A stretch of 64,000 nucleotides of DNA. Source: Promethearchaeota archaeon (lineage in GTDB: Archaea; Asgardarchaeota; Lokiarchaeia; Sigyniarchaeales; SOKP01). The translations under genes and the position numbers were made by a program. The notes under the pieces were generated by a model. That model was not told where the DNA came from, made no database searches, and saw only the letters and a program-made list of their open reading frames with translations. The stretch's first letter is position 1; each line of letters opens with the position of its first letter. Where the stretch lies: positions 544,001-608,000 of the forward strand of contig JAHPZA010000010.1 in the NCBI GenBank assembly GCA_019058445.1, read 5' to 3'. Below, piece after piece: positions 18,082 to 21,724 of this stretch.

Positions 18082-19491
18082 ATGCCTTTGGCTGATCTAA
18101 AAACAACATTTTCCATTAAAGAGCTTAGGGGTAGCTCTAGCATTGCTTCTGAAAAGCGTGACTTTATGAGAAAATATTACCCCTCTATACGTCACGATCC
18201 TCATGAAGGCTTTCTTTATGGATTTTTATGCTTAATTTATGACGGAGTAAATAAAATTGAGGATTTGAAAAATAAAATGCGCTTATTTTTCATTTCCGCT
18301 TCAAAACAAGTTGTTGTGGAGGATCAAGACGTCGAAGAGTATTTACAATATGCTAGAAAAAAACAACTGATTAAGGAGGATACTGATGGGACTATATACC
18401 TCACGGAAAATGGTGAAAAATTAGTAGAATTGAGCTATTATTCTACTTTACATGCTTCTTATTGGATGAATTTAATATTTAATGAAAACATTATGCTAAT
18501 AACCACGGCTATTTTTTTAATGATATTAGCATCTATGAAGATATTTGTAGGGATGCAATTAGCATCCCAAGGCATGGTATATGAAGGATTTGAAAATCTA
18601 ACCGATCTACTTAAGGTTGCGATAATTTTTTTGGTTGGATTCAAATTGAAGAGGGATAAAGTCGCTAGTATCATAATTATTGGGATAATGATGTTTACAG
18701 GAGTCATTCTAATATGGTCCGGTATTGAAGCTTTACTGAATCCGACGCCGATTATACCAACAGTTCAGGCGTATATGATCTGTTTTTTTTCCGTTATCCT
18801 GAATTTAGCATTAATGTTTCTGAAAAGCTTGGTTGGCCGTACTTCTGGAAATCTTTCATTACTAAGTGATTCTAAAGACTCTGGTTTAAACGTAAAAATA
18901 TCATTGGGAGTGGCAATCGGTCTTACGTTTGCTATCTTTAGAATTTATTTTGTAGATGCTCTTATAGGCATAATAATAGCAATATTAATTTTTAAGGAAG
19001 GAATTGAAGTTTTAAGGGAATTATTGGGGCCTGAAGAGGATTTTGATATCACCGCAATAAAAGTTTTGGCAGATAATATCTATGATGATCGGCTCACAGG
19101 ATATATCTTAGGAAGTATAAGACGAGAAACATTAACAAAAGAAGATATTCTAAGAAATTTTGAAGAAGGCTTATATTTAGGACGCCTTTATTATGGTGGA
19201 TTTGCAGATTTCTTTTATCATAATTTAGGGGCGGAGATTGCGGAAAAACACTTACATAAATTAATAAAAGGTAAACTGATTGAAACATTAGGTGAATCTA
19301 TTATAATAACTTCAAAAGGGTTACAAACATATTATAGAGCGAAAGCGAAGGAATATAACAATCGCGCTAAAAGAGTTTATGTGGGTCCCCGAGTTCCTCG
19401 TGGTTTGATATATTTCATAGCATTTATAATTGCATTCATATTATTGATAATTTTTGCTAATGATATTAATCAATGGTTAATGAGCTTTTAA
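18082..19491 (+). CDS. Cation diffusion facilitator-like TM domain flanked by two winged-helix-like domains
   Basis: 6 TMs with CDF-like SGNLSLLSDS and VDALIGIIIA; wHTH wing motifs IYLTENG (N-terminal) and IIITSKG (C-terminal). Confidence 0.72.
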   Translation: MPLADLKTTFSIKELRGSSSIASEKRDFMRKYYPSIRHDPHEGFLYGFLCLIYDGVNKIEDLKNKMRLFFISASKQVVVEDQDVEEYLQYARKKQLIKEDTDGTIYLTENGEKLVELSYYSTLHASYWMNLIFNENIMLITTAIFLMILASMKIFVGMQLASQGMVYEGFENLTDLLKVAIIFLVGFKLKRDKVASIIIIGIMMFTGVILIWSGIEALLNPTPIIPTVQAYMICFFSVILNLALMFLKSLVGRTSGNLSLLSDSKDSGLNVKISLGVAIGLTFAIFRIYFVDALIGIIIAILIFKEGIEVLRELLGPEEDFDITAIKVLADNIYDDRLTGYILGSIRRETLTKEDILRNFEEGLYLGRLYYGGFADFFYHNLGAEIAEKHLHKLIKGKLIETLGESIIITSKGLQTYYRAKAKEYNNRAKRVYVGPRVPRGLIYFIAFIIAFILLIIFANDINQWLMSF

Positions 19492-20716
19492 AGTAATCTG
19501 AATCAAAGTTAGGATATATTTTTTTTCTACGTCCCTCCTTTTTTATGATGACTAATTTAAGATCAATTAACTTCTTTATATGGTAATGAATAGTTTTATG
19601 ATCTACTTTTTTTCTCTTGGTAATTACGCTATTCCAGATACCTGGCTCTTTTTCAATCATTTCTAATATATCTAAGGTTAATTTACTTTTACTTAATTTT
19701 AAGTCTAAATTTGAGATTGGATTTTTTTGATAGTAGGGGAAATATGCAATATAATTTCCGATTCTCTTTTTTCCAATGACCTTATATGTTTCTAAAATAT
19801 CCAGATGCCATACGAGATTTCCTGGTGCGAGTTCTGACTTACGCAGCAACTCATTAAAGTGAATTCCAGGCTCATCTAATATCAGATCAATAATTTTATT
19901 TCTATTTTCATTTTCTAATACCTCTTCTAGGGTTAACCGATGAGCTCCTTTCTGAATTGAGGTAGATCTTGTTCTTAAATATTGAAAATAATCTTTTTTG
20001 GATATAATAACAACAACTGATAAAATAGCGAAAGCAAGAATAATAGAACTGATAATCAAAATGTATGAAAAATAACTTACTTCATAAATAGTAATATAAT
20101 ACTCTGTATCCTTGTCAAGTTCCGATATTGAGCTTTTTAGATAAATTTCTGAATTATCAGATACCTCTTCTGTTTCCAATAATTCCCAAGAATCATCATC
20201 TTCCTCATATAGAGCAATAGAATATTCAGTATATGTATTCAATCCATATTCTGAATCTTTTTTAAAAGTTATTTTTATTTTATCAATTGAACTGTTTGAT
20301 TTTATGCGATAAATGCATCTATATTCAGATCTTAATTGAATTGATCCTTGTTGTGGAGCATTAGGATTTTTTGAGTATCCAAAATTTTCCATACTTCTTT
20401 CAACTTTTATATCAAGTGAGATTGGATTGTCATTTTTTATATCCATGGAAACCTCACGATTTTCAATTCTTTCATTATATTTAATCTTAAGTTCTGTAAA
20501 GACTTCTGTGTCAATTTCAAAATGAATATTGTTCGAGAAATGATAAGAAACGCTTTCATCTCCCTTTATTTCTGTTTTTTTTGAAAATCCTGAAACGTCT
20601 TTATCTTTTTTAGCAATTCCATAAACTATAAATAAATTAAATTCAAGAAGAAAGAAAATTAAAAGTAATAAGGAAAAATTTCGTCTATTTAGTTTATTAA
20701 GAAATTTATATTTCAA
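19466..20716 (-). CDS. Membrane-anchored transcriptional regulator: signal/anchor, beta-rich ectodomain, TM, two winged-helix domains
   Basis: ENENRNKIIDLILDEPGIHFNEL...LVWHLDILE and ILEMIEKEPGIW...TIHYHIKKL after TM YILIISSIILAFAILSVVVII. Confidence 0.85.
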   Translation of the reverse strand: MKYKFLNKLNRRNFSLLLLIFFLLEFNLFIVYGIAKKDKDVSGFSKKTEIKGDESVSYHFSNNIHFEIDTEVFTELKIKYNERIENREVSMDIKNDNPISLDIKVERSMENFGYSKNPNAPQQGSIQLRSEYRCIYRIKSNSSIDKIKITFKKDSEYGLNTYTEYSIALYEEDDDSWELLETEEVSDNSEIYLKSSISELDKDTEYYITIYEVSYFSYILIISSIILAFAILSVVVIISKKDYFQYLRTRSTSIQKGAHRLTLEEVLENENRNKIIDLILDEPGIHFNELLRKSELAPGNLVWHLDILETYKVIGKKRIGNYIAYFPYYQKNPISNLDLKLSKSKLTLDILEMIEKEPGIWNSVITKRKKVDHKTIHYHIKKLIDLKLVIIKKEGRRKKIYPNFDSDYFKSSLTID

Positions 20717-20789
20717 ATATTTTCAATCTCATTCGTTTTTCATTGAACATTTTAAAAAAAAAAAATTAAAATTATAATTTTATTATTCT

Positions 20790-21488
20790 TTATTTCCTTC
20801 TCTTTATAAATAATATTGCGATTCCTGCTAGAACTATTGCTCCGATTATAGATCCAATAATTAATAATAGAGTATAGTCAAATTCTGGTACTAATATTGT
20901 CCATGTCGAAAAGTGATCTGTTTCACATTCTAAATATCCATTTTTAGATGTGGTTTCAACGGTAACCCATTCTTCATTTTTCTTATCATAATAAGCCCAT
21001 GTGCCTCCTCTGTTTTCTTCATTTTCCTCTATTCTAAGCTTTGCTTCAATATCATCTTCACTAGAATCTATATCTACTACAAATCCTTCTTGATATCTAT
21101 ATCGATTTCGATTTCTTGCTGTATAAATGTTTCCTTTTTGAAGCCCAATACTATTCTGCTCTTCTCTACATTTCATTGTTAAATTTAGTTTATCATCTGA
21201 TTCTATTTCGATTTCAAAATCTTTATCCCCAATTTTTTTAGCATCACAATCAATAGAACAATTAGCTTTTTCATTACTTTCTACTGTTATTCTCGTTCTC
21301 TCCCTAAATCGAAATCTTACTCGTTCATTAGCACGAAGTTGTTCTTGAACATGATCGCTATCATCAATGTTGATTTTTTCATCATCACTAGCAGCATTGA
21401 CGGGAGTAGAGTTGTAGACCATAATCATTGAAAAGAGCATTGATAAAACCAAGAAAGAAAACACGATTTTTTTAGAATTTTTTTTCAT
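20790..21488 (-). CDS. Type I membrane protein with beta-rich ectodomain ending in a GPS/GAIN-like HFS motif
   Basis: AAGGTG SD before ATG 21488; signal peptide ending PVNA|A; WAYYD...W...CETDHFSTWTIL, then TM and KRRK. Confidence 0.75.
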   Translation of the reverse strand: MKKNSKKIVFSFLVLSMLFSMIMVYNSTPVNAASDDEKINIDDSDHVQEQLRANERVRFRFRERTRITVESNEKANCSIDCDAKKIGDKDFEIEIESDDKLNLTMKCREEQNSIGLQKGNIYTARNRNRYRYQEGFVVDIDSSEDDIEAKLRIEENEENRGGTWAYYDKKNEEWVTVETTSKNGYLECETDHFSTWTILVPEFDYTLLLIIGSIIGAIVLAGIAILFIKRRK

Positions 21489-21724
21489 AAATTTTAACAC
21501 CTTAATTAAATAATGAAATAGAATAATATTCATTTAAAAAGGATTAAGGAACACTTTTCCCCATATATTAATCTTTTTATTGAGTGAGAAGAACAATTAA
21601 AACAAACTTTGATTATCAAATCCAAGAAATAAGCTTATGTTTAATTTAACAAATTTATATCATATCTTTTTATAATTTTATTAATTACCTATTTTACTAA
21701 TTTTCACTGATATCATCTCTAAGC

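Follow-up and report, generated by a model that had tools for sequence, protein, structure and literature searches.

A predicted self-cleaving MAIN-type surface protein and a membrane-tethered double winged-helix regulator as a candidate signalling unit in an Asgard archaeon

We analysed a stretch of 64,000 nucleotides (the window; contig JAHPZA010000010.1, positions 544,001 to 608,000 of the forward strand) from the genome of a Promethearchaeota archaeon (assembly GCA_019058445.1; 4.6 Mb, 10 contigs, 92.6% complete), and focus here on two adjacent genes within it, called A and B. Judged from its sequence and predicted structure, gene A encodes a minimal archaeal protein with a domain of the MAIN type (Microbial Autoproteolysis INducing), and gene B encodes a membrane-tethered regulator with two winged helices and an ectodomain related to that of A. 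We propose, with a probability of roughly 55%, that the two make up one transmembrane signalling unit in which a MAIN-type sensor is wired to an autoregulated transcription factor. A first-pass annotation, made from the DNA letters, had described a self-cleaving surface protein with a GPS/GAIN-like site next to a non-cleaving, membrane-tethered transcription factor, and had compared their logic with that of adhesion receptors and Notch; this interpretation as a whole is partly supported by the present analysis. In homolog searches the proteins group with those of 'Promethearchaeota' and of Lokiarchaeota metagenome-assembled genomes, and the GC content around the A-B locus is 27-31%.

The listing of open reading frames (ORFs) confirmed that A and B are co-oriented on the minus strand, with 73 nt between them, and that the HFS codons lie where the annotation had placed them. 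The layout given there for A was borne out by the sequence and an AlphaFold2 (AF2) model, and that of B, which lacks HFS and continues into a transmembrane (TM) helix and two winged helices, by the homolog alignment and Pfam. The features of both genes are as follows.

20790..21488, minus strand: gene A, 232 aa, with signal peptide, MAIN/GAIN_B-like domain, TM helix and KRRK (ORF, homologs, AF2)
21393..21488, minus strand: predicted signal peptide of A, residues 1-32, predicted cut after VNA (VNA/AS) (read from sequence)
20880..21383, minus strand: ectodomain of A, residues 36-203 (168 aa), predicted all-beta sandwich of the MAIN/GAIN_B type (AF2, VIA-align, hhalign)
20907..20915, minus strand: H192-F193-S194, predicted autoproteolysis site F/S in the turn between the last two strands (DSSP, conservation, register)
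20805..20873, minus strand: TM helix of A, residues ~206-228, followed by KRRK (hydrophobic stretch and AF2 helix 205-231)
19466..20716, minus strand: gene B, 416 aa, membrane-tethered double winged-helix regulator with an ectodomain paralogous to that of A (ORF, homologs, Pfam)
20612..20677, minus strand: N-terminal hydrophobic helix of B, residues 14-35, signal anchor or signal peptide (sequence and AF2 helix 2-35)
20078..20611, minus strand: ectodomain of B, residues 36-213, predicted MAIN/GAIN_B-like sandwich without His-x-Ser (AF2, VIA-align, hhalign)
20000..20071, minus strand: TM helix of B, residues 216-239 (sequence and AF2 helix 216-249)
19733..19924, minus strand: winged helix 1 of B, residues 265-328, PF24266 HTH_HVO_0163_N (Pfam, E 6.7e-16)
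19502..19684, minus strand: winged helix 2 of B, residues 345-405, PF13412 HTH_24 (Pfam, E 4.5e-9)

The start of A at the ATG at 21488 is supported by 96 homologs with lengths of ~225-235 aa; a longer ORF from 21533 was rejected because of these lengths and because its ATG lies inside a TATA-like element described below. The Sec-type signal peptide begins with MKK and has a K-rich n-region, a hydrophobic core and an A-x-A motif. In the AF2 model it forms a helix (residues 5-25) followed by a low-confidence linker, which is short and acidic; between signal peptide and sandwich there are only about 12 residues. The ectodomain ends in W164..W174..C188-ETD-H192-F193-S194-TWTILVPE. Gene B starts with TTG at 20716, directly after an in-frame TGA; 539 homologs were found, and homologs are 416-418 aa long.

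MAIN domains are GAIN_B-like, widespread in bacteria and archaea, and carry a conserved HFS motif (Brogan & Rudner, bioRxiv 10.64898/2026.05.12.724683). The same work showed by Edman sequencing that YfkN is cut between F and S, that the cut is lost when S1346 is replaced by Ala and returns with Thr, and that the fragments remain associated afterwards; among the bacterial MAIN domains with HFS that were tested in vitro, all but one were cleaved. Typical MAIN proteins are very large (158 kDa on average), carry adhesion or enzyme domains as passengers and are anchored through sortase or SLH, and the authors' model is the release of surface proteins, with release in trans proposed as the ancestral mode. 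Their paper says explicitly that MAIN domains have not been linked to signalling, asks whether the anchored 'tethered peptide' affects cell physiology, and in its main text makes no mention of Asgard archaea or helix-turn-helix outputs (bioRxiv 10.64898/2026.05.12.724683).

Searching Pfam and NCBIfam with A gave nothing above their cut-offs; the NCBIfam model of the YfkN family matched A residues 112-200 at model positions 1242-1332 with an E-value of 0.012. A profile of the A ectodomain, run by hmmsearch against 1.84 billion representative proteins, returned 134 matches. Most are small archaeal proteins built like A, with a signal peptide, the domain, HFS-x-W-T and a TM helix, and some are large bacterial proteins that read YYYDE..W......(V/E)-(D/E)-H-F-(S/T)-x-(Y/F) and have SLH anchors and adhesion domains. 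The bacterial SLH proteins P0334 and P0337 were found at E 1.4e-4 and 2.3e-4, respectively, against the whole library, and hhalign aligned the A profile with a segment of P0337 at a probability of 95.2% (E 2.7e-8), HFS on HFS, and with a second bacterial segment, from P0334, at 75.8%. These comparisons indicate a sequence relationship between A and bacterial MAIN-bearing surface proteins, YfkN itself having been compared through its family hidden Markov model. The predicted signal peptide and C-terminal TM helix further suggest that A is secreted and anchored C-terminally of the domain, as MAIN proteins are; the large N-terminal passenger that is typical of MAIN proteins, though not defining for them, is missing. 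A feature search of the ESM Atlas returned only Promethearchaeota clusters and weak leads, and the A profile found no other MAIN-type domain in the source genome.

Several archaeal proteins of the MAIN type (P0218-P0221, P0269, P0275, P0296, P0313) contain two or three domains in tandem, each with its own HFS-x-W-T. Their C-terminus is a TM helix or a PGF-like tail, and cutting at every site would leave them as several non-covalently chained pieces.

We then consider the fold of the two ectodomains. The AF2 models, with family alignments as input, had a mean predicted local distance difference test (pLDDT) score of 84.9 for A and 87.2 for residues 1-250 of B, and both show a beta-sandwich between a leading helix and the TM helix. 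DSSP applied to the model of A places HFS in a four-residue turn (191-194) between the last strands, 185-190 and 195-201. In an unbiased VIA-align search of 48,161 PDB chains, ranks 1-3 for model A were all GAIN domains, namely CELSR1 (Z 7.0, 129 aligned residues, root-mean-square deviation 3.4), CD97 (6.8) and BAI3 (6.2), with aligned lengths of 127-131 residues. Further matches were the CARD8 FIIND (5.9), ankyrin ZU5 (5.5), GPR110 (5.1) and NLRP1 (4.7), and lower ones GPR56 (4.5), GPR97 (4.3) and Gpr126 (4.2). A second VIA-align comparison, which added further structures, gave BAI3 6.7, rat NLRP1 6.3, BAI2 6.3 and ankyrin 6.0 for model A. For model B, the search of all chains ranked the BAI3 GAIN domain first at Z 6.3, with ankyrin ZU5 at 5.7, CELSR1 at 5.4 and CD97 at 5.2. 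Foldseek against the PDB likewise had GAIN domains as its top four for model A (CD97, BAI3 twice, BAI2), and ankyrin ZU5 close behind.

The top of both VIA-align lists is thus formed by two structural families, GAIN and FIIND/ZU5, which are the ones known for self-cleavage at H/S-hydrophobic-S/T motifs. That both ectodomains are structurally related to GAIN subdomain B and to ZU5, as had been predicted, agrees with these rankings; no SEA or SEAL structure was among the matches listed for A or B, and both models are all-beta. The register of the alignments points to the same site as the motif. In the chains of GPR56 (..382), GPR110 (..566), GPR97 (..249) and NLRP1 (..1212), whose ends we take to be the P1 residue of the cleavage site, the last aligned residue of model A is 193. 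In uncut CD97 the alignment ends at model residue 203 and CD97 residue 540, which is presumably nine residues past S531, as 203 is nine past S194. A profile search (hmmsearch) of A against PDB sequences gave no match even at E 10. We consider the assignment of the A model to the GAIN_B-like sandwiches fairly, not strongly, supported; because the Z-scores are only moderate, it leans on the composition of the top ranks, the F193 register and the sequence link to bacterial MAIN proteins.

Model A was also matched by axonemal proteins, subunits of the 96-nm repeat in Chlamydomonas, bovine sperm, Leishmania and human (8glv_AE, 9fqr_Hn, 9y6s_9f, 8j07_k3; Z 4.8-5.2 over ~130 residues), and these subunits may contain a GAIN/ZU5-like sandwich.

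The motif itself is well kept within the family of A, as the first-pass annotation had expected. The family reads (D/N)-H-F-S-x-W-T at this place, with HFS in 76 of 87 homologs and with S194, W196 and T197 invariant (Ser in 87/87); C188 is present in only 41/87. Together with the model, which sets H-x-S/T in the turn before the last strand, these features suggest that A is a minimal archaeal protein of the MAIN type.

In a subfamily of A-type proteins (P0083-P0096, ~295-373 aa; for example G077:C41:5562-6485), encoded at loci separate from the A-B pair, CxCxC / C-x-C-x-C-E-C repeats form a long insert between the halves of the sandwich. The members of this subfamily mostly carry NVLS or NFLS, not DHFS, and probably do not cleave.

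The annotation had aligned the ectodomains of A and B by eye. BLASTP gave the same alignment (20% identity, E 0.099), insignificant alone, and significance came from the family profiles: hhalign of the A family (87 sequences) against the B family (77 sequences) reached a probability of 95.5% and an E-value of 1.6e-8 over 142 columns. Cross-matches in other genomes pointed the same way: with A as query, E-values for B genes were 1e-8 to 5e-7, and with B as query, those for A genes were 3e-9 to 8e-6. By these sequence comparisons the two ectodomains are homologous, that is, paralogs. The profile alignment ends before the last hairpin, where both families diverge. At the turn, B of the window reads L-D-K-D-T-E-Y-Y-I-T, and its family L-(Q/D/E)-(A/K)-D-T-E-Y-Y-I-T-x-Y-E, with no conserved His among the 77 homologs and with Y206 and T209 invariant. 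From sequence and model, B appears to be a degenerate MAIN relative, GAIN_B-like and homologous to A, in which the catalytic H-x-S/T is absent.

The cytoplasmic tail of B exceeds both curated Pfam cut-offs (PF24266, 58.6 bits against a cut-off of 31; PF13412, 36.2 bits against 21.9; two stretches each) and so belongs to the HVO_0163-type / ArsR-MarR-like winged-helix regulators. It is nearly invariant across the 77 homologs, the PF24266 columns included, whereas the ectodomain is only ~40% identical. A reading of B as a PGF-pre-PGF protein was dropped, the match to TIGR04213 (E 0.32) being too weak for use. Six further ORFs of the source genome, 224-309 aa long, match the double winged-helix tail of B only (E 3e-12 to 2e-7): C6:373298-373750, C10:640340-640981, C4:207115-207567, C3:197753-198181, C4:394437-394889 and C9:322667-323032. 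By sequence they are a family of small regulators of the B type that have no MAIN-like ectodomain.

To what extent the two genes belong together can be judged from 301 genomes sampled from the phylum, 68 of them from the window's family. Of the 301, 69 gave a match to A and 65 a match to the B ectodomain, nearly all of them from the window's own order. Within the family, 60 of the 68 genomes have A, the same 60 have B, and the same eight lack both. The synteny that the annotation had proposed as a check holds in almost every genome that has the genes: in 59 of these 60 genomes the two lie side by side on the same contig and strand, A first, with a gap of ~60-150 nt, and in the remaining genome the B gene lies at a contig end. 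Since these genomes are kin, the 59 linked loci represent co-inheritance and not 59 independent events. The pair is kept down to ~40% identity while the flanking genes change, and it is also present in a Promethearchaeota genome of 67% GC, with HFS in A and none in B. In one genome of the family (G273:C206:2950-3671), B beside an intact A is broken by one TAG and one TAA, which marks a pseudogene or an assembly error.

In three clusters (P0040, P0041, P0043) the two genes are fused, with an A-type ectodomain with HFS, a TM helix and a B-type tail in one gene; at the P0040 locus, the only fusion locus examined, the fused gene has no separate B gene after it. A distant metagenomic locus with a high GC content encodes an A-type protein, P0268 (NHFSTYAIL), followed by a B-type protein, P0278, that itself reads SHFSTFTLL in its ectodomain. 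Because this pair keeps HFS in both genes, the loss of the motif in B looks secondary. A homolog search with P0278 returned only P0278, and a scan of the genome contigs confirmed no relative. Complex prediction for the A and B ectodomains gave a score of 0.00, which is below the mark and counts neither for nor against binding.

Two kinds of unpaired loci were also seen. The A-type gene P0265 (HFSTYAV; L027/L028 4001-4711) has no B-type gene beside it; its neighbours are N6/N4 DNA methyltransferase genes, many small ORFs of unknown function and a DUF87 ATPase, and the locus may, by its gene content, be a mobile element or a virus. Second B-type regulators in other genomes of the family (L029-L035; for example L031:1958-2524, minus strand) are each preceded by a gene for an N-terminally anchored protein of ~190-200 aa that starts with MASKK and has neither HFS nor a C-terminal TM helix, with a T-tract between both genes. 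The partner protein showed no detectable homology to A or B (hhalign probability <1%), and by sequence these loci are a parallel module of partner plus B-type regulator.

The region upstream of A, compared between the window and ten other genomes of the family (11 loci), contains a conserved box next to a TATA-like element, and the gap between A and B contains a T-tract.

21541..21564, minus strand: conserved 24-nt promoter box ATGGGGAAAAGTGTTCCTTAATCC, candidate operator, in 11/11 loci, with a GGAA-N5-TTCC inverted core (34 bits)
21532..21540, minus strand: TATA-like element TTTTTAAAT, ~45 nt before the A start codon, TTTTTAWAT-like in all loci (putative TATA element)
20754..20765, minus strand: T12 tract between A and B, with an oligo-T of at least 7 at this place in all 11 loci

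The box lies directly 5' of the TATA-like element, ~50-75 nt before the start codon, and the remaining spacer is unconserved. With a leave-one-out matrix, the box of the window scored 30.4 bits and the next best site on both strands of the 4.6-Mb genome 20.3 bits; the box is unique in the source genome. It also stands upstream of the fused gene (29.2 bits), and upstream of the pair with HFS in both genes there is a GC-shifted form, TGGGAGAGGTGTACCCCAATCC followed by CTTTTATAC. A related box precedes the B-type paralogs at 4 of 8 loci (19.6-23.7 bits in loci of 2.9 kb), and two more score 10-13. Because it also stands before paralogous B-type operons that open with a gene of no relation to A, the box travels with the B-type regulator and not with the MAIN protein, and we infer that it is a candidate operator of the B-type regulator. 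The T12 tract may be an archaeal oligo-T signal for termination or attenuation, with A made in excess over B, or part of a B promoter.

Several points weigh against reading A and B as one unit. Some genomes have extra B-type paralogs with no A-type neighbour, and B-type regulators therefore do not strictly need a MAIN partner. In 11 of the 87 A homologs NVLS or NFLS replaces HFS, so cleavage is not universal in the A family. The structures of both ectodomains are AF2 predictions, their Z-scores of 6-7 are in a middling range (Z below 8 can mean a common arrangement), and Foldseek against the PDB gave no match for model A at E 0.001 or better, the E-values being 0.03 or worse. A has no passenger domain that could take up a ligand or force, unlike nearly all described MAIN proteins. 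Should B be the protein that binds the box, which is unique in the genome, its own module would be the one direct target in evidence, and this fits a feedback loop better than a broad response.

The B-type paralogs with no A-type neighbour would also suit a model in which A and B arose by tandem duplication and work independently of each other, A being a sheddable self-cleaving surface protein and B a separate membrane-tethered one-component regulator whose ectodomain has its own ligand, adjacent through ancestry and shared transcription. The published MAIN model, which is one of release and not of signalling, agrees with this, and the conserved T-tract could end the A transcript before B. We nevertheless regard independence as unlikely. 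It leaves unexplained why the pair stays adjacent in 59 of 60 genomes down to ~40% identity despite changed flanks and is jointly lost in eight, and why A-type ectodomains are naturally fused to B-type tails; A has no passenger to release, and even the paralogous B-type regulators always follow a small extracytoplasmic membrane protein and have the related promoter box.

Our analysis shows the gene structures, the class of fold, the conservation of the motif, the homology of A and B, their linkage and fusions, and the conserved box; cleavage, A-B contact, binding of B to the box and the stimulus we infer, in the following scheme for the signalling unit. A would be exported and held at the outer face of the membrane by its single C-terminal helix. 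It would cut itself between F193 and S194 by an N-to-O acyl shift, with His192 as the base and Ser194 as the nucleophile, and the 160-aa N-terminal fragment would stay non-covalently bound because S194-E202 is the last strand of the predicted sandwich. Judging from the family, we think it probable that A folds outside the membrane, cuts itself at F193/S194 and keeps this fragment.

The HFS of A could instead be structural and non-cleaving, comparable to ankyrin and UNC5, whose ZU5 domains stay uncleaved, or to GAIN domains that do not cleave, with A and B forming an uncleaved heteromeric receptor of two beta-sandwiches. Ankyrin ZU5 is indeed among the best structural matches (Z 5.5-6.0), and the subfamily with VL for HF keeps the rest of the strand, which means that the fold can do without the His. 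Against this, H, F and S rank among the most conserved positions of the family, the Ser without exception; the place of the motif, in the turn that leads into the last strand, is precisely the one it has in cleaving GAIN and MAIN domains; and nearly all bacterial HFS-bearing MAIN domains tested in vitro did cleave. A non-cleaving A thus seems decidedly unlikely to us.

In the scheme of one signalling unit with a cleaved A, the paralogous sandwich of B, which has lost the catalytic His and Ser, would be coupled through its TM helix to the two DNA-binding winged helices. B would read the state of A, intact or with its N-terminal fragment shed by force or a ligand, through ectodomain or membrane contact, and would set transcription from the 24-nt box beside the TATA-like element of the A-B promoter, which would make the unit autoregulated. 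In the one-gene fused forms the same event would act on the regulator directly. The Notch-like release of B that the first-pass annotation had suggested is unsupported, as no protease or release site was identified, and for this reason a B that stays in the membrane in the manner of ToxR is equally possible as one that is released in the manner of RsgI or Notch.

Adhesion GPCRs also have a 'trans' mode. A corresponding version of the present scheme, a sub-variant of it and not an exclusive rival, in which the N-terminal fragment of A is shed constitutively as a diffusible or contact signal and read by B on the same or neighbouring cells, B then being released by intramembrane proteolysis (Notch/RsgI-like) or staying in place, would draw on the AF2 model, where the fragment becomes an independent domain of 160 aa as soon as the last strand detaches, and on the trans release proposed as ancestral for MAIN domains, but it is very improbable, with no protease gene linked to the pair in the window or the loci examined.

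A shares with the MAIN proteins YfkN of Bacillus subtilis and the IgA Fc receptor of Streptococcus agalactiae the GAIN_B-like sandwich with HFS before the last strand, the signature W..W..HFS-x-aromatic, secretion, and a surface anchor directly C-terminal of the domain. It differs from them in having no passenger, in a TM anchor in place of sortase or SLH anchoring, in its Asgard lineage, and in adjoining, or in some lineages being fused with, a cytoplasmic double winged-helix regulator.

The GAIN/GPS domains of adhesion GPCRs and polycystin-1-like proteins are the best structural matches for both A and B, and the residue at their cleavage site aligns with F193. Like A, they have two conserved Trp before H-hydrophobic-S/T, a site ~10 residues before the TM helix and a tethered beta-strand peptide. 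The GPS/GAIN-like label of the first-pass annotation stands as far as a GAIN_B-like fold is concerned. It does not hold in the sense of an animal GAIN/GPS module: both models are all-beta with no helical GAIN_A, A has HFS rather than HL(T/S), and the GPS cysteine pattern (C..W..W..C..CxC-HL-T/S) is absent, C188 being the only Cys nearby. A has one TM helix and four residues instead of a seven- or eleven-helix TM domain, and the output here would be a separate or fused DNA-binding protein and not a G protein. We file A as MAIN-type, and not as an animal GAIN/GPS protein, because it lacks the helical subdomain A, the GPS cysteines and a seven-helix TM domain.

The ZU5/FIIND domains (NLRP1, CARD8, PIDD1, and the uncleaved ankyrin and UNC5) share with A the beta-sandwich and the cleavage motif (H/S)F/S, and F1212 of NLRP1 aligns with F193. 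Their scores for A (Z 4.5-6.3 for the NLRP1 and CARD8 FIIND, 5.2-6.0 for ankyrin ZU5) are no better than those of GAIN, and there is no match at the sequence level. They are cytosolic and continue into UPA plus CARD or death domains, whereas A is extracytoplasmic with its TM helix directly after the sandwich.

Two bacterial or archaeal systems come close in logic. RsgI with its SEAL domain (SigI/RsgI, Bacillota) also has an extracytoplasmic self-cleaving domain with associated fragments in a single-pass protein that controls transcription, and force-driven dissociation is its proposed trigger; its fold is SEA-like, its output a sigma factor released after intramembrane proteolysis, and it is one polypeptide with no pair of a cleaving and a non-cleaving protein. 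Regulators of the ToxR/CadC type and of the archaeal HVO_0163 type (PF24266) combine a winged helix, one TM helix and an extracytoplasmic sensor, as B does. B differs from ToxR/CadC in its sensor, which would be a dead MAIN/GAIN_B-like sandwich, in its two tandem winged helices and in its dedicated upstream partner gene, which is always present.

The MAIN domain class has been known since 2026. New here are a minimal form that lacks a passenger and is anchored by a TM helix, the obligate coupling of this form, as a neighbour or in a fusion, to a membrane-tethered regulator with two winged helices, a cleavage-dead paralog, a promoter box of the module's own and the Asgard setting. Literature searches on Asgard archaea with GAIN or autoproteolysis, and on HVO_0163, returned nothing useful. 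We tentatively suggest, as a possibility to which we give less than even odds, that in the A-B pair and its fusions a self-cleaving domain of the MAIN/GAIN type is, for the first time, seen wired to an output inside the cell, which would make them an adhesion-receptor-like or Notch-like sensor of force or contact in a prokaryote, where loss of the N-terminal fragment of A is read by a cleavage-dead paralog and transcription is set from a dedicated operator.

The module offers a compact two-gene test case for MAIN signalling, with natural controls in the cleavage-dead paralog, the one-gene fusions and the distant lineage with HFS in both genes, and with the candidate operator as a read-out. No prokaryotes are more closely related than Asgard archaea to the lineage in which signalling based on GAIN and ZU5 domains later arose. 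If the cleavage state of A controls B, prokaryotes, and among them the archaeal group nearest to eukaryotes, would have a form of the adhesion-GPCR logic in which a self-cleaving ectodomain senses force or contact, here with transcription as the output. Otherwise the pair would still illustrate cleanly a minimal MAIN protein that lacks a passenger, and the role of this protein would call for another explanation.

Beyond the pair, the gene at 18082-19491 of the window (plus strand), which is convergent with B and is not kept beside the A-B pairs of other genomes, encodes a protein with multiple TM helices.

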